Shown here in pieces: positions 2,705 through 48,980 of a stretch of DNA of 64,000 nucleotides (position 1 is the first letter of the stretch; every line of letters begins with the position of its first letter). Origin of the DNA: Octopus vulgaris (Eukaryota); NCBI GenBank assembly GCA_951406725.2, contig OX597828.1, positions 73,284,001-73,348,000 of the forward strand. Reading direction: 5' to 3'. The translations under genes and the position numbers were made by a program. Below the pieces are notes generated by a model, which saw only the letters and a list, made by a program, of their open reading frames with translations, was not told the origin of the DNA and searched no databases.

Positions 2705-2752
2705 AGTGAGGAAAGACAGACAGAAAGATAAAGAGGGAGAAAGAGATAGTTG

Positions 2753-2825
<73 letters not shown>

Positions 2826-3089
2826 TTAATAGATAGAAGATAGATAGATAGACAGATACCAAAATGGCCAATGTTTTAGAAATGTAGTTTGGGCACAAAT
2901 TAGTTTTGAAACTGGAAAGAAAAAAAAGGAGAAACAATGTTATCAGACGTGAGTCTTGGGAAGGGCAAATATCCAAGAGGCCATTCCAATATTGGAAGTA
3001 AATATCAGATAATTACTACTGCCCTATTGCAATCTATAAATTAAAAATTTAACATATATTTACATTAACGCATACATACCTACACACCG

Positions 3090-3176
<87 letters not shown>

Positions 3177-3883
3177 TACATATATATATAAATATATAGA
3201 TATGTATGTGTGTGTATGTATATATGTATATATATGTATATGTATGTATATATAAATACATGCGTTTGCGTGCTTGTGTGTGTGTGTGTGCGTGTGTAAG
3301 CCCGAATGGTCAAAGTCTTTGTTTGAAGGCGATTTACCAGTGAGTCACTAACTTATGTGCTGTACTAACAAGCTAAAGTTTGTCTTCATTAACCATACCG
3401 TAGGTTTCGTTTTCTTTCTTTTTCGATCTAATCCCATGAATCTATTCGCGCGGGCAGGGAAACGGAGAAAAAGGAAAAAGGAAAAAAACTTCCTCCTCCT
3501 TCATCCAGAAAATAAAATGTCGTTTCATCCCAAATTTCCATTCCGTTTCCTTCGATGCTTCAGCCTTGTATTCTACAGACCTTACCAATTTGCCGGTTTC
3601 TATTTATTTTAACATTTTACAGTTTTACATTTGTCTCTCTTGCTTCCTTCCATCTCCCTCTCACTCTCTCAGTATATCTTCACTCTCTTTCTGCTCCGAT
3701 CTTTCTTCTTTTCCCTCTCTCTCTCCATCCTTATCCATCGTTTATCCTTGCATGTTTCAAGAACTGGTCGACCGTGGTTGTGGAGTTAATGAAGTTGATC
3801 TTTACTCTTTTCTCTCTCTCCCTCTCTCTCTACTTTCTTTCTTTCCTTCTCTCCGTCTCACCCCACCCTTTCTTCCTGTCTGT

Positions 3884-8182: not shown

Positions 8183-9589
8183 TGCCTCAAATATAAGAAA
8201 CAAAATCCAGGGTTATAAACAGTGTGCAATTAGTATTTCCTTATTTGAACTTGTCGTTTGTCTACATCATGTAGGTTTAATTGATCGATCACTTTCATGC
8301 GAATGTATATATGCATCTATACATGTGTATGTGTGTGTGTGTATATATATATATATCTGTATTTATGTATGTTTATGCGTGCACATTTGTAAGCAACTGC
8401 GTATTTACATAGTGATATACGTATGTATGATATTTATATATATATATATATTTTCATGTGTGTTTGTGTGTGTGTTTGTTTGTGTGTGGATGTGTGTGAG
8501 TACGTGTGTGTGTATGTGTGTATGTATATATATATCTGTATTTATGTATGTTTATGCACGCACATTTGTAAGCACGTGCGTATTTACATATCGATATACG
8601 TATGTATTATATTTATATATATATATATATATATTCATGTGTGTGTGTGCATGCGTTTGTGTGTGCATGTGTATGTGTGCGTGTGCGTGTATGTGTGTAT
8701 GTATGTGTGTATGTGTGTGTGTGTACATATAAATGAATGCATGTGTGTACTTATGTGTGAATCGGTATGACTGTTCAGTAAGGTAAGGTGGTTCGAATTT
8801 ACCGTCACATATCTTCCAAGCTGACGTAATTGGCTTCAGCACTACTTCCCCCTCTCCGCACCCCTCATTCTGCACCCCCTCCTCCACTGTCCAACCTCCT
8901 CCTCCTGCCTTTACTAATACTACTACCAACACTACTCCGCTCCTTCCATACTCCAGCACAACCCCCATCGCCGTCACTCTTCTCGGTGCAACATAACTGT
9001 CACCATTACACGCCTTCCTCACAGTTTACTCCTTAAGTTGCTCTTTAAAGATATCTTAATTTTTTCTTTCTTTTTTGCAATCTATTAAAATTTATTTCGT
9101 CCGTAAATTTATTTTATCTAAAATATCAAATAAAAAAGAAACTTTCAAGAAATCGCAAAATAAATTTAATGGAACAACCGATATTTTCCGAAGAATATTT
9201 CATTTCTCGTCATATTTTTTTTCCGATTTACTATTTTAATTGAATTGTTCTCATTTTTAAAAAAATCATATTTTTTTCCTTCATTAATGACAAAGGCATT
9301 TAACCACTTAAGTACACAGCTAGAATATTCTCATATTTCGCTCTATGTGGTGCAATAATTTCATATAAAAAATATTCTTTATTACTGAGAGAAAAATCTT
9401 GATATTGATACGAAAAATGAAGTCTATTTTCTCTTTTTCTTATTTCATTTCTTTCCATATGTCATGCTTCTTGTATAATTTAAATAACAGACAATGTAAG
9501 ACCTATATAGCTGCACGATAAAGGTTTAAAACCTACACGCTTATTTGTATACACACAAACACACACACACACACACACGTATATGTGTG

Positions 9590-9621
<32 letters not shown>

Positions 9622-9932
9622 GTTCTGTTTGTTCCTTCTCAAGCCACGCCTGGCTCATGAGAGCAGGTTTCCCGGTTTCCCGGTTTCCTTGGCGTATAGG
9701 TTCCCCTCCTGGACAGGACGCCGGTCCGTCGCAGGTGAGCTGCAAGATGCAGGAGGAAATTTTAAGAGAAAGTTGTGGCGAAAGAGTCAGCAGAAGTTCG
9801 CCATTACCTACTGCTGAAGCCGTGTTCAGCTTAGATATTTCGCTCATAAACACACATATCGCCCTGTTTGAGATTCGAACCTGCGATCGCTCGACCGCGA
9901 GTCCGCTGCTCTAACCACTAGGCCATGTGCCC
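9622..9932 (-). mobile_element. SINE family C (tRNA-Arg-like head) with V-domain-like 3' region
   Basis: Minus strand has A box TGGCCTAGTGG, GGACTCGCGG loop, B box GGTTCGAATC, and 3' CCTGCGACGGACCGGCGTCCTGTCCAGG. Confidence 0.8.
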
Positions 9933-9936
9933 CATA

Positions 9937-10145
9937 TCAGACGCCATGATAGATCGTTAGCCACTACACACATTTTTTCTCTCCTTGTTTCTCTCCTTGT
10001 TTTTTTTCTGTGTCCCTTTCTGTGGAAGAGCGTAGGCTCAAAACGTAAAAGACTTTTTCTATTCCTCAGCGTTATACTAATACATTTGTTTGTTTTGTAC
10101 ACCACCTGTCTTCGTCTTTTGTTTTTTTTTCGTATACTTTCCCTA
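9937..10145 (+). mobile_element. About 200-bp hammerhead-bearing repeat, family H1 (probable solo Penelope-like terminal repeat); degenerate core
   Basis: Highly similar to 23455-23690 and 41983-42177. Motif at 10016-10051 is CTTT-CTGTGGA-A-GAGC-GTAG-GCTC-AAAA-CGTA-AAAG, with G12 lost. Ends in TATAT. Confidence 0.7.
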
Positions 10146-10169
10146 TATATTTTGTTTTGTTTTGTTTTT

Positions 10170-10382
10170 GTTTTTCCAGTTTCAGCTCTTGAGCTGTGGC
10201 CATGCTGGGGCACCGCCATTGTGGTGAAAGAGTACAGCAGGGATCACCACCCCCTGCCGGAGCCTCGTAGAGCTTTTAGGTGTTTTCGCTCAATAAACAC
10301 ACACAACGCCCGGTCTGAGAATCGAAACCGCGATCCTGCGACCGCGAGTCCGCTGCCCTAACCACTAGGCCATTGCGCCTCT
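10170..10382 (-). mobile_element. Chimeric SINE: family C head/body plus family A tail
   Basis: Minus strand GAGGCGCAATGGCCTAGTGGTTAGGGCAGCGGACTCGCGG...CTCTTTCACCAC joined to GGCGGTGCCCCAGCATGGCCACAGCTCAAGAGCTGAAAC. Confidence 0.8.
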
Positions 10383-10462
10383 ACATATATATATCTACCT
10401 ACACAGACACACACACACACATTTAGACATACATGCATATATTCATATATGCATACATTTAC

Positions 10463-10551
<89 letters not shown>

Positions 10552-10559
10552 AAGGGAGA

Positions 10560-10997
<438 letters not shown>

Positions 10998-11870
10998 ATG
11001 TATATATATATAAATACGTAAATTTGTAGTGGAATATATAGATACATATAATCGTGTGGCTATCACAGAACTTTCCTCTACCATACTTGGTTAGGTGGTC
11101 ATGCAAAAATCTAGGCACCTTAAATACAACCAAAGAGTTTCCACCTATAGCCGTTCACTCTTCTATACTCACTCCCAGCTTAATTCATATAAAGAATGCG
11201 AGTTATATCTATGGGTTAGCCTTAAGAGTTAAGATCTCTTCCAGAAAATCCGTATCTTATCCCCACAAACGCCTGTTTTTTTTTATGTAAACTAAAACAG
11301 AATTCTCTCGACAGATATATAAGGGAAAACGTACTGATTTGAAAGTCAGACATTTGTTTAATGTAGACCCGCTTCCTATCCACTCGGCCGAGTTAACGCT
11401 ACACTAATAGATACGAAGTCTTATTAACACATGTACACACACGCGTGTACGCACACACACGCGTGTACGCACACACACACACATATACACAGGCACATTC
11501 ACACAAACACATATATATAAGTATATATAGTAACATATGTATGTGCATAGATATACACACTTACATGGTGATTTTAAACCTGTTGTTTTAATCCCTTCCT
11601 TTTCACCAGTCTTTTCATAGTTTCGTCTTCTTTGTCTATTCGTTTAGCACTCCTCCCTCTCCTTCTCCTATTCCTCCTCCTCCTCCTTTCTAGTGTTTCA
11701 TTCTTTGCTTTATTTGTTTCTTAATAGAATCCCGAACGATTCGCCGACGTCCATTTTATTGTTTCATTGACCTCCTCTGACATTTTGCTTTATAGCTTGC
11801 TTGACCAATTATTTCGATTTCTCTTTCATTCACTCACTCTATCGCGCTCTCTCTCATCTATCTATCTGTC

Positions 11871-11907
<37 letters not shown>

Positions 11908-12097
11908 ATATATATATATATATATATCTACTTATTTATCTATCTCTACAAAGCCTTATTGAAATGATCCGTATAGAAAGGAGTGATCAGAGATAATATT
12001 CCATATCATCTCTTGTACAAAGGTGTCAATTATTTATGACAAAGATGAAACAACATTGGTCATAAATGGCACCACCTCCCTTATCAAAGAACAGCAG

Positions 12098-12167
<70 letters not shown>

Positions 12168-12700
12168 CTGTATCCGCATGTGTCTGTGTGTCCGTATGTC
12201 TTTTAGTGTGTGTATCTGTGCGTATACTGTAACCTATAAAACATATTTTTCATTAATCGTAGGAAATGGTTAGTTTTTGTGCATAAACGTACGTAAGAAT
12301 GTGTATGTATTTGTGTGTGTGTATGCGCGTGTGTGAGAGTATATAACATACATACATATATACATACATATACATATATATATATATATATATACATACA
12401 TACATATATATATATACGTATATATATATACACATATTCATACATGCCTGTATATGCATTCATGCACACACACACACTTATATGTAAATACATACACATA
12501 CAAACGATTATATATTCGTATATCTCTTTGTATATTTGTGCGTATGAATGCATGTATCCTTGTATGCATGTCGTGTTCAATTCCTAGTGGTTCGGCTCAT
12601 CTTTTTTCAGTCAACTGTTTATGCTTAGTCGCTTTAAATGGACCATATATTATTATATAAATATTATATTAATTATAGTTCTAATATATATATATATATA

Positions 12701-12993
12701 TATAATTTATAAGATAAGGGCAAAAGAAGAATGGAAGAGGGGAACATTTCTTGTGAATTAACCCCGAAATTGGACCAATACGGTAATAACGAATTTTTTA
12801 GAGATTTCTATCGGTTTGTTTCGAGACGCATGAATTTAATGGTTATCGACAATTTTTTGTTTCGGCGTATCTGGCATTAGAATTTTCTTTTGCCCTTATC
12901 TTATAAATTATATATAAATTTTACCTTTAAAGGCATTTCTTGATATGCTGGCCATTGATAAAAATTTTTTGTCGAAAAAAATTTTATCCTATA

Positions 12994-33534: not shown

Positions 33535-34038
33535 CAATCTCTTACGTTTTTACCTTGCACAACGCACCTTTAATGCATATGTGCGTCTCGGCATGTTTGT
33601 GTAACGCTTTTTTTTAAAGATATGTTATGTCCTGTATGTTTGGGTGGTAATGGCCAAGAAGGAAATAATAATTATCGCTAGTTTTCTTTTATTCTTTTAT
33701 CGTTCTATTTTCCTTTTCTTTTACTCAGGTGTTCAATCCAGGCCATGCTGGGACAACGGCCTGGGTTGCCGCAAACAGAACTCAGTATTTATTTTTAAGT
33801 ATGTTACTTGTAGAAACAGTCGTGCTCTTCTGTTAACATATTGGTGACTTGGTGTCATAAACAAGCCTATAGCAGTCATCAAACTTTGAGAGACGCACGC
33901 ACGCTCAAATGCACGCGCTCACACACACACACGCACACACACACACACACATACACACACACACACATACACACATATACTTATGTATGTATTGACCGTT
34001 CCAATTTCAATACGTAAGCTTTCTTATTCTATATTTTC

Positions 34039-34245
34039 GAGATGAAGAATTGTATACATTATTTACAATGGACAGATAAATGAAATACCTTAGGAATGAG
34101 AACAGGGTACCCCATTAGTCATTTAAAGCGTTGGGTTCTAAATTCCACCAGAACACCTGATGGATACTGGAGAGTACCTCAGCCGAAACGTTATTGTAAC
34201 AACAAAAAGATGAGAGCACCTATCCGTCCATTGGGAATAATATAA
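34039..34245. mobile_element. Internally deleted relative of the 47112-47705 fold-back element
   Basis: Left terminus GAGATGAAGAATT..TACATTATTTACAAT..ACAGATA, then right-arm AAATACCTTAGGAATGAGAAC...AACAC-CTGATGG..CAGCC-GAAACGTT..AACAACAAAAAGATGAG. Confidence 0.7.
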
Positions 34246-35339
34246 GCTTTCTTTTCCTTTCACGAATATAGTCACCGATTTTGGTAGTAAACTTCTTAAT
34301 CCATCTAAGCTTTTCATTTCTACTTTGTATCCATGGAAATGAATAAGCTGATGCTGCGTCTGTTTAGATCTTTGGTTGGAGTCTCATGGAACGGATATAT
34401 ACTCAAATGACGCTCTAGCCACGCCAATCCTATCTTATTTTCGGCAAAGTCTACCCAACCACATAATAACTCATACCTCTTTTTGGAGGAAAGAAGTAAA
34501 GAGGAGTCGCTTGTGAATGGCATACCAGTCATTATTGCAGCATTAAGTTCATATCTCATATCTCATAACAATTGTTATTGTTATCGGCGTTTAGCCCTAG
34601 GTCAGGTCCAATCATCAGTTTGTTTTTCAAATGTAGTGTATTTCTGACTATATTATCTAATGATCTGTAAGTGGCAGATGATTCTAACCGGTCAAACGTG
34701 TGAGAAAATAAAGAGAAAAACAAGGGAAGACGGAATGACCACTCCTTAAACATCTCATCTTTTATTAAAACACAGTGTATTTAAGACTACATTATGACTT
34801 GTGACCGCATTTGAAAAAAAAAACTGTTGGGTGTGATTTCAGGGTAATGTGGCCCAAATTCCTGGCTGAGCGATTAATGACGCACAAACAAATCGTGATA
34901 CGTTTATTACTAAAGCTGTCAGAAAATGCAGCAAAACCTTCTCTTAACTCGAATCTTACATTTTGCTCTTTCTTAAAAATGCACAATCTATTTCGTAGTT
35001 GAATAGAAAGTGTCGGAAAAAGATAGGATGGTCAGATTTGGAATATCATTTTATGTTCCGATCAAACAAGCTGACCTGGGGCTAAACGATATGATATGTC
35101 TGGGTCTAATGTGAGTTGGAAGATGGCCTCGACGGATGAATGGGAAGGATTTGTCGAATGGCGGTGGTGTGTCGTGATTCATAAATATAAGGTATTACAA
35201 TAGATGTCATGTGTTGACCGGAGCAAATATCTTCTTTCCGTGTTGATTTACTTGTCTCGTTCAGACAGAGGAGAACAATGGAGTTAATATTGCTATAAGC
35301 TTTAAGGCGGAGAACGGGTGGAACCGAAAGCACGCCGGA

Positions 35340-36852: not shown

Positions 36853-38067
36853 CAGAGTTTTGAAAAATAATGGAAACAGCTAGCGTCATAGCATCATAGT
36901 TTTGAAATATCTATAAAACCATCAAAAGCGTGTTTATTTTTATTGTTTTTTTTTTATTTATTATTATTGTTACTTAATATGTTTTGCTAAAATTGCTGTT
37001 TCTTATCAGATATCAGAAAAAAAGGTAAATTAAAATTCATTAAAATGACAGATCTATCGGACTTTCAAAGAGGTCAAATTGTTGGTGCTCGTATGGCAAG
37101 CGTTAGCATAACGAAAACAGCTGAAATGTTTGGTGCATCAAGCAGTACTGTCTCGAAAGTAATGACAGCCTTTGATAAAGAGAAAAATCTCCTCGTCGAA
37201 ACAAAACTCCGGAAGAAAACCAAAACTTTCAGATAAGGATCAGAAAAGTAGAGCTCCCAAAATTACTGCAGAGCTTAATGACCATCTCGAGAACCCAGTT
37301 TCCACAAAAACTGTTCGCCGAGAGCGGCACAAAACAGGATTTCACGGCAGGGTTGCAATCGGAAAATCGCTACTTTCAAAACCAAACGTTGCAAAGCGTT
37401 TTGAGTGGAGTAAAAACCTACAGAATTGGACCCTCGAGCAGTCATTTTCTCAGACGAGTCATCCTTTACCTTATTTCCGACCACCGGCCGAGGATACGTG
37501 TGGAGATAGCCATAAGAAGCATTTGACTCAGACTGTCTTCTTCCAACTGTTAAACAGGGAGGAGGATCTGTGATGATCTGGGGTGGGGGGTCTCTATCTT
37601 GGAAATCCGCCGGCCCAATGATTTCCCTTTATGGCAGAATTAATTGTCAAGTCTATTTAAACATTATATCTGATCAAATTCATCCTATGGTTGCATAGCT
37701 GTTTCCGGAGGGAAACGCAATCTTTCCGGATGATAATGCACCAATTCACACAGATAAATTTGTTATTGAATGGCACGAGGAGTTTCTAGTGAACTTGAAC
37801 ATCTTATTTGGCCACCACAGTCCCCAGATCTCAGTATTATTGAACATTTATGGGTCTTTTTAGAAAAATACCATCATCATTACAAGAAATGAAAACTGTT
37901 TTAGCTGAAGAATGGACAACAATTTCTTTGGAAACAATTCAAACTTTGTACAAGTCCATAACTCGTAGAATTCAAGCTGTAATTACGGCCAAAGGCGGTC
38001 TTATCCCATATTAAAATAAATTTGTTTGAAATTCTAAGGCGTTTCCATTATTTTGGGAAGACGCCTG
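36853..38067 (+). mobile_element. Tc1-family DNA transposon, near full length, decayed
   Basis: TIR cores AAAATAATGGAAAC / GTTTCCATTATTTT; left TA; internal transposase relic. Confidence 0.9.
37045..38014 (+). pseudogene. Tc1 (DD34E-type) transposase pseudogene
   Basis: MTDLSDFQRGQIVGARM..HTH; SGRKPKLS; FSDESSF; GGSVMIWG; FPDDNAPIH; WPPQSPDLSIIEHLW; AVITAKGGLIPY*. Multiple frameshifts and stops. Confidence 0.9.
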
Positions 38068-45821: not shown

Positions 45822-47184
45822 ATATACATATATGTATGTATGTATGTATGTATCTATGTATGCATGTATGTATGTATGGGTTGAAAGGTCAGATTGTCAA
45901 GGCGTAAGGCAGTAACCCATGCACGATCAGTTTAACACCAATTTGTATATTGCGCACGCAACCCTTCATGAATGAAGAGAAGGTGGAAGTTTCAGTGTAG
46001 AAGTTGTTCGCCTCCAGGACAAGAACAGGTGTCAGCGTGGGATCAAAGGACAGGTAGAAAGGTGCACTCAGACTGTGCATCACGCTGGCTTCTGGTTTGA
46101 AGTCTCGGCCACTTTACTTGTACGCTGACGGATTATGCAGATAAGTTACGAAAATATTGGAACGTAATATTTCGGTAATACAAAGAATAAAATCGTATAC
46201 AAACACTTTTTATAGCAATAAATCTTTCTGCAAATATATTGTTTATCCATTACTGATCAAAAAATATCGAAATAATCGTTATGTTATCTTTTATGAAATG
46301 TATAAAATCCTTATTTCTGTTTTAAGTATTATATTATTGTCCTTAGAATTTCGTTAGCAGTAAATAATATTTCAGTTAATTATTTATAGCAATTGAACAG
46401 AACTTCGAATTATGTAGGTATTATTATGTATGCTTGTATGTATGTATGTATGTATGTATGTATGTATGTATGTATGTATGTATGTATGCGTGTATGTATG
46501 TATGTATGTATCTACATATGTATGTATGTGCGTACATATGCATGCTTGAATGTATGTATGTATATGTATGGTCTCTTGTGTTTCGTAGATAATCGAAAAG
46601 GCAACAAGCTCGCAGAATGTTTGGTACGCTGGACAAAATACTTTATTTTATTCATTGCTTTTGTTTTGGTCAGTTTGCTGAATAGAGTGTGTGGAAGAGA
46701 ACCGTTATGTGCAAACTAATTGTCTTGGTGGTCAGGACCCTTCGCTATCAGGAAGGACCTTCTCAATACACCCGATTGTTGATAAATTGCATAAAGGAAG
46801 GAATCTTTAACTTGCTCACTTCTGTCCTACGTTGCCGTTCTGCTCCTTCGATGAGTAATCCAGGAGATAGTTCGTTTCTCACCTGCTGCTTAATGCAAAG
46901 AGAAGTGAAGATAAACAGCAAGTTATATGGATCATAACAATTAGCACTGGGTTACCAGTAAAATATTTTACTTAGCCAACTGCAGTTTTATCTCAACGTA
47001 CGGATTTCCAGGATTCTTAAACTCAATTAAATGTCATTCACTAATGCTAGGTTAATAATGAATAATTCTTATTGTGAGAAGACGTAATGTTATCAAAAGG
47101 GATTTTATATTTAAGAGATGACGAATTATTTACATTATTTACATTATTTACAATTTACAGATATTTGTCCTCATCTTGTTTGTT

Positions 47185-47230
47185 AACACAACGTTTCGGT
47201 TGATATACCCTACAACCTTCATCAGGTGTC
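47185..47230 (-). ncRNA. Minimal type I hammerhead motif, canonical core
   Basis: Minus strand GACAC-CTGATGA-A-GGTTG-TAGGGTATAT-CAACC-GAAAC-GTT-GTGTT. Confidence 0.75.
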
Positions 47231-47279
47231 TTGGGAAAATTTTGAACCTGTGTTCTAATTCCTAAGGTATTTTTTGTTA

Positions 47280-47351
<72 letters not shown>

Positions 47352-47605
47352 CATTATTCAGGTCACTACCTGGAATCGAACTCGGAATCTTGTAGTTAGT
47401 AGCCCGCGCTCTTAACCACTATGCCATGTGCCCACAGGCATATAGCTTTGTAGCTAAGAACGCGGGCTAATGACTCCAAAATTCCGAGTTCGGTTCCAGG
47501 TAGTGACCTGAATAATGATGATGATGCTAATAATAATAATAATAATAATAATAATATAACGAAAAATACTTTAGGAATGAGAACCCAGTTTCAAAATTTC
47601 CCCAA

Positions 47606-47651
47606 GACACCAGATGAAGGCTGGAGGGTATATCAGCCGAAACAATGTGTT
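47606..47651 (+). ncRNA. Degenerate hammerhead motif (U4A, mutated stem III/triplet)
   Basis: GACAC-CAGATGA-A-GGCTG-GAGGGTATAT-CAGCC-GAAAC-AAT-GTGTT. Confidence 0.55.
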
Positions 47652-48980
47652 AACAACAAACAAGATGAGGACAAATATCTGTAAATTGTAAATAAAGTAA
47701 ATAATGATTTTATATTGTTTAATTCGAAGAGGAACACTATATTTTGTCGCCTTAAACGTAATGAGAGATGAGATTTTCTGTTTTATTAAACTTAATGGTA
47801 CATAGAATGCTGCATCCTATTAAAATTAGTGAAATATTGAGATTTTGCACATCTTTGATTCTAATGAGAATGAGAATGTTTGATAGTTAAATTGGTGAGA
47901 ATTCTTGATGCTTAAATTGAATAACATATGATATTATTTTCTCTTAAATTCAAATTCAACATGTTTGTAATATGGATGATAAAAATCTTTATTCAAAGGA
48001 AATTTGAAATATTTCCACCCATTTAATTAATTGAGTATCACTCGTGTCAAGTTTCAATTTATTTATATTTTATGAACTTGATTAAAGTTTGAACTCTGGA
48101 TCAAGCGATATACATTCATAGATGTGCAATTCAACCTTAACCTTCAGCACTAAGTGTAGCTCTTAGGAACTGGTCCTTCCAAAAAGCACCTTAACATAGG
48201 TCTGCCCACTTTACCTGTCAATATCTTAATATGAAAATCATCAAACATGCCTTCTCCCATCACAATATTTATGGCACCTCAGTGTCATTAAGGCAGTGAC
48301 ACGAGGCAGGATTTGAACACAGATCCCCAACAGACATAACGAGACACCGCAAATCTCTTACAAGAAATAGACATAATCCAACCCCGAAAACACCAACTTG
48401 AATTGAGTCGTTTATTTACGAACCCCAAGAGATGAGACGAAGGGCACGATTGATTGTAACAGGATTTGAAACCAAAGTGGAGATACCCAGAGCTAATCTC
48501 GCAAACGATTTTAAAGAACTCGCTAACCACTCAACCAGGTAACCTAATATATAACTACATATACATTACAGAGCAAAGACAGAGAAATGAACAAAAGAAA
48601 TACAAAGCCTAAGGAATTTGTCTGCAAATGGAAGCGACAAAAGTTGGCTTTCAACTTCGCAAATTCAGATTCTTTCAAAGTTAGAATCAGATGTGACTTG
48701 CAACATTTCTAGCATTTCTAGAAAAAGTTTTTCAAGTTTCAGAGTAGCAATAGGAATTGGTGCCAGATTCTACATTGAGCAGCAATGAAGTGGCAGCCCC
48801 TATAATGTACTTTCACTTTAGGGGTCATTACGCAAGTAAACCCTGCCACTTACGACATTGAAATTTACAAAGTTTGATACGTAATACGTATAATATATAT
48901 TCTTTCTCAAGTGGTTAACATATTACAAACACACACAGACACACACGCACACACACATATATATGTATGTATATATATAT

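Follow-up and report, generated by a model that had tools for sequence, protein, structure and literature searches.

Analysis of a 64,000-nt window from Octopus vulgaris (assembly GCA_951406725.2, contig OX597828.1, positions 73,284,001 to 73,348,000 of the forward strand) revealed a fold-back element made of two inverted arms between window positions 47112 and 47705. The left arm (47112..47433, minus strand) and the right arm (47434..47705, plus strand) are 78.5% identical across 302 aligned nt, and arm-to-arm complementarity by segment is 81-98%. We interpret the element as one insertion of a Penelope-like element (PLE), in which two 5'-truncated copies of the terminal repeat (pLTR) lie head-to-head and the tRNA-like sequence they carry is likely an internal promoter for RNA polymerase III (Pol III). 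An exact 11-bp direct repeat, already recognized in the first-pass annotation of this DNA, bounds the pair at 47101..47111 and 47706..47716 and represents the target-site duplication (TSD). In a by-eye comparison the family tail agrees with eight of the 11 TSD bases, and the inner boundary of the insertion is therefore ambiguous.

The left arm extends from position 1 of the tRNA-like sequence, which is +33 after the last codon of the PLE open reading frame (ORF; plus-signed positions below are counted in this way), to a long 3' end. On the minus strand it comprises a tRNA-Arg-like head (47359..47433) with intact A box (47416-47426) and B box (47372-47383), an (AAT)n spacer (47280..47358), the position of the PLE start codon (47257..47259; mutated here, with ATG present in the long copy L224), a minimal type I hammerhead motif with intact core inside the first ORF codons (47186..47229) and a 3' extension (47112..47132). 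The alignment agrees with the annotation that this extension is restricted to the left arm, and it corresponds to the PLE 'tail' (PMC8557442). The right arm ends at a short 3' end and is tail-less. Its features, all on the plus strand, are a head (47437..47510) with degenerate A box (47443-47453) and mutated B box (47486-47497; the conserved A is lost), the ATG of the ORF N-terminus (47577..47579) and a hammerhead motif (47607..47650) with lesions in the core (CUGAUGA to CAGAUGA) and the cleavage triplet (GUU to AAU). The annotation had assigned A and B boxes and a type I hammerhead to each arm; both assignments hold for the left arm, and the right-arm counterparts are degraded. Its pairing of head-to-head homologous units was likewise correct, and the 4 nt described as separating them proved to be the loop of the element's own palindrome, on which the junction (47429..47440) lies without foreign bases. 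Translation revealed the N-terminal part of the PLE ORF, ~35 codons, in each arm. The proposal that read-through RNA would form a stable hairpin was borne out by the computed fold (-346.8 kcal/mol, z=-41).

A search of the same genome with the unit gave 5,503 candidates, of which 40 were scored, and a protein search for the partner ORF gave 4,980, of which 150 were scored. Exact patterns of 33-34 nt matched 1,690 hammerheads, 825 heads and 447 ORF-head junctions; the reversed control of the 34-nt hammerhead pattern had 0 matches. From 1,690 exact matches at ~5.5% divergence we infer a copy number of roughly 10,000. A blind sample was formed by the 70 loci spanning the first 71 hammerhead matches on contig C1, with architecture ignored. 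The linkage of head and hammerhead, which had been put forward for counting, was found at 42 of these 70 loci as a same-strand upstream head and at 55 of 70 when either arm is considered.

The head is part of a coding element. In 46 of the 50 loci fetched, and at 41 of 45 distinct ORF ends, it occurs no more than 70 nt after the ORF; among the four misses, three retain a head piece by eye and one has a deletion. At L224 and L230 the upstream unit runs directly into the ORF, with the hammerhead within the first codons, and the unit body flanks the ORF on both sides in L224, with the tail piece present in L230. The pLTR is a partial tandem overlapping the ORF start in these two copies and a full tandem in L263, a locus of another lineage discussed below. 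The order in the autonomous element is ORF (reverse transcriptase (RT) and GIY-YIG), stop codon, ~30 nt, tRNA-like head, (AAT)n, ATG, hammerhead in the first codons, tail and the rest of the ORF. Heads at the ORF ends, together with the upstream unit running into the ORF, show that the unit of head, AAT spacer, hammerhead and tail is almost certainly the pLTR of an autonomous Penelope/Poseidon-type PLE and not a separate short interspersed nuclear element (SINE). The search for an autonomous PLE with RT and GIY-YIG that shares the module, as suggested by the annotation, was therefore successful, and the Penelope-type mobilization it had claimed agrees with the linked ORF and with the PLE-like inverted, tailed, TSD-flanked copies.

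The annotation had further proposed a non-autonomous tRNA-SINE with only a PLE-derived hammerhead and tail. Most copies are indeed without ORF sequence, since the 5' end is at the head or beyond it in 102 of 117 arms, and the exact hammerhead and head patterns outnumber the ORF-head junctions. However, the head itself lies in the autonomous pLTR, and ORF-linked heads (44) and heads at the start of arms (71) have the same majority base in every column except +96, a difference absent in the blind subset. As the origin of the unit the tRNA-SINE was rejected, and an independent element of this kind is very improbable. A sister family, here called family B (the family of the locus being family A), likewise has ORF-linked heads (L158, L168, L173 and others).

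In the partner protein, RT motifs and a thumb are followed by a C-terminal endonuclease with CCHH. In L211 a 569-aa open frame holds RT motifs plus a terminal endonuclease-like region, and the ORFs of L224, L230 and L218 were read across breaks in three frames. The RVT_1 match (E=2.7e-6) is just under the cut-off, NCBIfam gave weak RT matches only, below cut-off, and telomerase RT is among the PDB matches of the partner profile. The Pfam GIY-YIG model gave no score on the endonuclease piece of the partner; PF01541 is carried by four homologs of the protein. The endonuclease motif is YSIPCSCG..YKGET..EH..ADH, in which YIG reads YKG. No Cys linker between thumb and endonuclease was seen on inspection of the protein. 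According to the parts of the literature available to us, to which all comparisons with published work here refer, the clade is defined by CCHH with two Cys between GIY and YIG and by lack of the upstream CX2-5CxxC linker (PMC8557442). A quick tree, which included no named PLE reference, sets the partner apart from the Cys-linker (Neptune-type) families of the same genome. The abundant Pfam-GIY-YIG PLEs at L101-L150, mostly Cys-linker elements with intact 781-aa ORFs, were rejected as the partner for want of a shared 3' module; the sole exception was a neighbouring short-unit copy at L147. Within this set, L131-L136 represent a young, high-copy Neptune-type PLE with intact 781-aa ORFs, several with an upstream open frame of 300-480 codons.

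No intact full ORF was found among the fetched family copies, whose divergence from the majority base of the columns is 4.6-6.6%. Within the sample the family is inactive, and the copy at 47112-47705 is a dead fossil. A homolog from another source (P0003, 55% identity) keeps the peptide encoded by the hammerhead core (TPDDG...PKRCV) at residues 17-32, and the ribozyme-in-ORF layout thus reaches beyond this genome. Viral contigs yielded no relative. Among prokaryote genome contigs one relative was found (L340), on a contig filed as a bacterial metagenome-assembled genome and without boxes by inspection.

Analysis of the blind sample revealed an inverted partner at 45 of 70 loci; the true inverted share is nearer half, because a pair is twice as likely as a single arm to enter the sample. 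The 45 pairs comprise 41 long/short, four short/short and no long/long combinations. The 3' ends of 123 arms form two main groups, one of 60 at body positions 140-159 and one of 51 at 180-187. A TSD score of at least 9 was obtained for 24 of the 45 inverted pairs, compared with 2 of 300 swapped flanks, with TSD lengths ranging from 8 to 16 bp. This family-wide excess supports the earlier view that the pair was inserted as a single TSD-bounded unit. Paired arms have 26 variants in common, compared with 12.0+-3.0 after permutation (maximum 20; 300 permutations, 35 pairs), and the excess indicates that both arms come from one template or source; four of the 26 belong to the 47112-47705 locus. An adjacent inverted 5'-truncated copy, a 30-40-bp tail and a variable TSD have been described for PLEs (Craig et al. 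2021, PMC8557442), and two internal priming sites explain the inverted pattern (Frangieh et al. 2024, PMC11167929). The fold-back is thus a known PLE insertion pattern.

Other origins of the fold-back were considered and rejected. Twin priming of a long interspersed nuclear element (LINE) does not fit the same 3' sequence repeated in both arms, nor a partner ORF that is a PLE. A miniature inverted-repeat transposable element or a chance palindrome does not fit arms differing in length by the tail and TSDs of 8 to 16 bp. The blind sample consists mostly of inverted pairs and single arms and not of head-to-tail tandems of the retrozyme type; direct duplicates are only occasional (L043, L006). 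As a separate observation, a ~600-nt repeat lies within the AAT spacer of the family at L011, L025, L027, L062, L084 and L193, which suggests that it may be an element targeting (AAT)n tracts.

From known PLE chemistry, the PLE protein would nick the two strands of an AT-rich target at sites ~11 bp from each other, and two cDNAs primed at two internal RNA sites 30-45 nt apart would give one long and one tail-less arm. Each cDNA would then be extended as far as the 5' end of its template, an RNA with its start at the head, and the two would be joined, at this locus via the palindrome at the head start. The least sure step is the synthesis of that RNA by Pol III, which would read on through the ORF. 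Head-only copies could re-amplify like SINEs.

The distribution of arm 5' ends supports an RNA that starts at the head. Among 117 ends, 40 lie within +15..+45, and the 15 that are farther upstream are spread over ~900 nt. For the 51 arms with intact head core, a few of the tabulated rows being ambiguous, 36 start at +25..+41, none at +10..+24 and 10 reach the ORF side. The mode, +33, is tRNA position 1. This 5' wall marks the 5' end of the RNA and does not tell which polymerase made it. The mode at tRNA position 1 would also suit trimming by RNase P, and a 12-nt palindrome at +26..+37, which holds the junction of the 47112-47705 locus, would suit an RT stall or strand switch there or at the folded head, in which case the wall would not be a transcription start. 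However, 26 of the 36 wall ends carry no flag for a junction with an inverted head, and the predicted fold of the head is no more stable than that of shuffled sequences (z=-1.0); we give these explanations a very slight probability.

With regard to the polymerase, the best match of the head is tRNA-Arg(TCG) at L245, colinear and with z=8.2 among 30 same-genome tRNA loci that cover some isotypes only. As a side observation, L236 holds a cluster of tRNA calls, six for Cys and one for Ser, in a stretch of 3 kb. Heads of families A and B (135 and 16 copies) differ at 10 positions, three of them in the boxes and all three at positions that are degenerate in the box consensus. The head is rather likely to be used by Pol III.

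A TTTT run is a Pol III terminator, and the sense strand should lack such runs if the element is read by Pol III. The family A majority (2,267 columns, 18 copies) contains no TTTT, with 4.1 expected, and 28 AAAA, with 28.5 expected. The depletion has P=0.017 on base composition and P=0.0008 once scaled to the other families. In Cys-linker PLEs from this genome with like T content, four of the six ORF stretches contain 8-9 TTTT per 1.7-2.3 kb and the remaining two contain 1 and 4, and 22 other PLE families, headlessness being established for only part of them, have 178 TTTT when pooled, with 103 expected. TTC is preferred over TTT in L211 of family A (16:6) and in L263 (15:8), and the other NNT/NNC pairs are even or T-rich. 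The loss of TTTT would be explained by Pol III transcribing through the ORF, the least sure element of the reading.

L263 is the only one of 79 metagenome loci (37 of which have at least 150 nt after the ORF match by a by-eye count) in which the stop codon is followed by A and B boxes, then by an AAT spacer and by a hammerhead at the ATG; elsewhere the box pattern had one further match, L283. It is 38% identical to family A and not its sister in the quick tree. For L263 the expectation is 5.2 TTTT and the count is 2 (P=0.11; 0.006 scaled); the two runs lie within the opening 200 nt of the ORF, and the next 2,360 nt contain none. The region 2745-3200 of this locus (metagenome contig JGI1357J11328_10009043) belongs to an intact-looking tandem Poseidon-type PLE with an open ORF of ~855 aa (P0119). 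At 3059-3074, in the N-terminal region of the ORF, one of the TTTT runs lies within a hairpin similar to the histone 3' stem-loop (Rfam E=0.21, below gathering).

The same PLE insertion could also have been templated by an RNA polymerase II (Pol II) transcript, the head being a captured SINE head in the 5' untranslated region and the wall a Pol II start. A TATA-like motif, TTTATAA, overlaps the stop codon and lies ~30 nt upstream of the wall, the box-less relatives L270 and L340 carry such a motif 40-42 nt ahead of the hammerhead, and Penelope of D. virilis has an internal LINE-like promoter with its start in the pLTR (PMC2377424; PMC8557442). The missing TTTT runs, the TTC-over-TTT bias in family A and L263, the box-compatible changes between families A and B and the second lineage with boxes at a like place (L263) are left unexplained by Pol II, which we regard as unlikely, though still a rival. 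By eye, L262 and L300 likewise show a TATA-like motif ~40 nt before the hammerhead.

Besides these TATA-like motifs, several results weigh against transcription by Pol III. ARAGORN made no tRNA call, either for the window or for 24 head-bearing loci, and Rfam gave no tRNA match at the locus (E<=5) or at seven other loci (E<=10). The TTTT depletion taken alone is modest evidence: synonymous shuffles that keep codon usage revealed no depletion in excess of codon usage in eight stretches (P=0.05-0.62), and two T-poor box-less families are also TTTT-free, with 1.5 and 1.1 expected. Boxes are known from only two lineages, non-sister in the quick tree, and the early TTTT runs of L263 could stop Pol III, which weighs against full-length read-through there. 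Uncapped Pol III RNA translates poorly, and a second promoter may therefore be needed for the protein. Three raw RNA runs, chosen by species label, and one contig set were aligned to L197. The runs gave 8,663-12,822 reads each on L197, from 11.5-12.9 million records each; coverage is equal in both mate orientations, and no pile-up of starts or ends was found in the three runs, which are of fragmented RNA. Loose read ends gather at the two 3' ends, 45 nt apart, and at the head start, as expected for read-through of genomic copies; the runs are compatible both with presence and with absence of Pol III transcripts. Base differences on L197 are confounded by family divergence and give no indication for or against ADAR editing.

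Taking both sides together, the Pol III promoter remains our preferred interpretation of the head. A broader scenario is possible, though on balance doubtful: some autonomous PLEs, in at least two lineages, may have swapped their promoter for a captured tRNA, with Pol III transcribing the whole 2.5-kb element, selection removing terminators from the ORF and truncated pLTRs serving as ready-made SINEs.

The minimal type I hammerhead is defined by CUGANGA, GAAA, stems I and II, a palindromic stem III and a NUH triplet. All of these are present in the left arm, where the predicted cut is after GUU, between 47190 and 47189; the right arm departs at two of them. The majority sequence across 118 family copies is intact. 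The covariance-model check proposed earlier gave no support, as Rfam returned no hammerhead match at the locus (E<=5) or at seven other loci (E<=10). The compensatory pair noted in stem II is a real double change: 3 of 118 family copies carry it, this arm among them, the single changes occur 3 and 10 times (Fisher p=0.022), and none of 48 sister-family copies has the pair; as evidence of covariation it is weak. Minimal PLE hammerheads cleave poorly in vitro and only as dimers (PMC4209133), and the hammerhead is possibly dispensable for PLE insertion (PMC11167929). The motifs of inverted arms cannot form a dimer within one RNA, as we reason, because they lie on opposite strands.

Comparison with known systems places most of the architecture among described PLE features. 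As in the Penelope/Poseidon PLEs with endonuclease (PMC8557442; PAc of Anolis, PMC11167929), this family has an RT with C-terminal GIY-YIG, CCHH and no upstream Cys linker, a pLTR overlapping the ORF start with the hammerhead in the first codons, and an inverted 5'-truncated copy with a 30-40-bp tail at one end and variable TSD. It differs from them, in the available text of both sources, in the A/B-box head in the pLTR, the sharp 5' wall and the 2.3-kb ORF lacking shared TTTT runs. The minimal type I PLE hammerheads of Cervera & de la Pena (2014, PMC4209133) share the unpaired base before stem II, the G-C first pair and the palindromic 15.2-16.2, and opposite-strand pairs 100-700 bp apart are reported there for Schistosoma; stem II is 5 bp here and 7-8 bp there, and the sections available describe no tRNA-like head.

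Small-RNA-derived Pol III promoters in a terminal repeat are known from the TRIMp3 elements Cassandra, Helenus and Ajax (Kojima 2024, PMC10886601), for which origin by SINE insertion has been proposed. TRIMp3 elements are non-autonomous LTR elements of 311-1263 bp whose autonomous partners are expected to use Pol II, whereas here the promoter-like sequence is in an autonomous PLE. Short non-coding derivatives of PLE pLTRs, as in our family, include the non-LTR retrozymes (Li, Clavereau & Pollet 2026, 10.64898/2026.07.22.740005) and the non-autonomous Chlamys elements such as MRC1 (PMC8557442), and further non-autonomous pLTR derivatives are known (PMC7761336). Retrozymes are tandem arrays, whereas this family is dispersed, mostly inverted and provided with a tRNA-like head.

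The first-pass annotation was aware of no description of such a family. A SINE carrying a hammerhead was already known in SMalpha of Schistosoma mansoni, which we take to have Pol III boxes as well. SMalpha is SINE-like, ~335 bp long and carries a type I hammerhead as here, and no link to a PLE pLTR is described in the text available (PMC8490949). A tRNA-derived promoter in a PLE pLTR was not found in the literature searched by title or abstract opening, with most subscription literature, and all of Dfam, Repbase and SINEBase, outside the search. The new part is therefore the tRNA-like A/B-box head in an autonomous PLE pLTR; fold-back, tail and hammerhead are already known PLE features.

The tRNA-derived SINEs OK, OR1 and OR2 were reportedly described from octopus by Ohshima and Okada in 1994, with OR1 and OR2 said to descend from tRNA-Arg. 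An OR-type name, or an entry in Dfam/Repbase, might already exist for the short form of this family. OR2 is listed as a CORE SINE (PMC4758252), whereas the body of this unit is PLE coding sequence. The main text of an octopus repeat annotation (PMC13282606), as far as available, makes no mention of a hammerhead or ribozyme, and its supplements may list the family.

Among PLEs, the promoter of D. virilis Penelope is the one mapped example found. A tRNA-derived promoter in an autonomous PLE predicts B-box-dependent, amanitin-resistant transcription through a TTTT-free ORF, and the combination of boxes and TTTT loss offers a simple sequence screen for further cases. For the annotation of SINE-rich genomes it is relevant that the terminal repeat of a coding element can have the appearance of a tRNA-SINE. 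A captured-tRNA promoter, if true, would be a direct route from PLE to SINE.

Elsewhere in the window, no host gene was evident on inspection of the longer frames. A small fold-back of family B with a 10-bp direct repeat at its ends lies at 34017-34253; the family B unit differs from that of family A in the absence of the AAT tract, a longer middle and a different hammerhead loop. Fragments at 36991-37628, inspected in translation, resemble a Tc1/mariner transposase.

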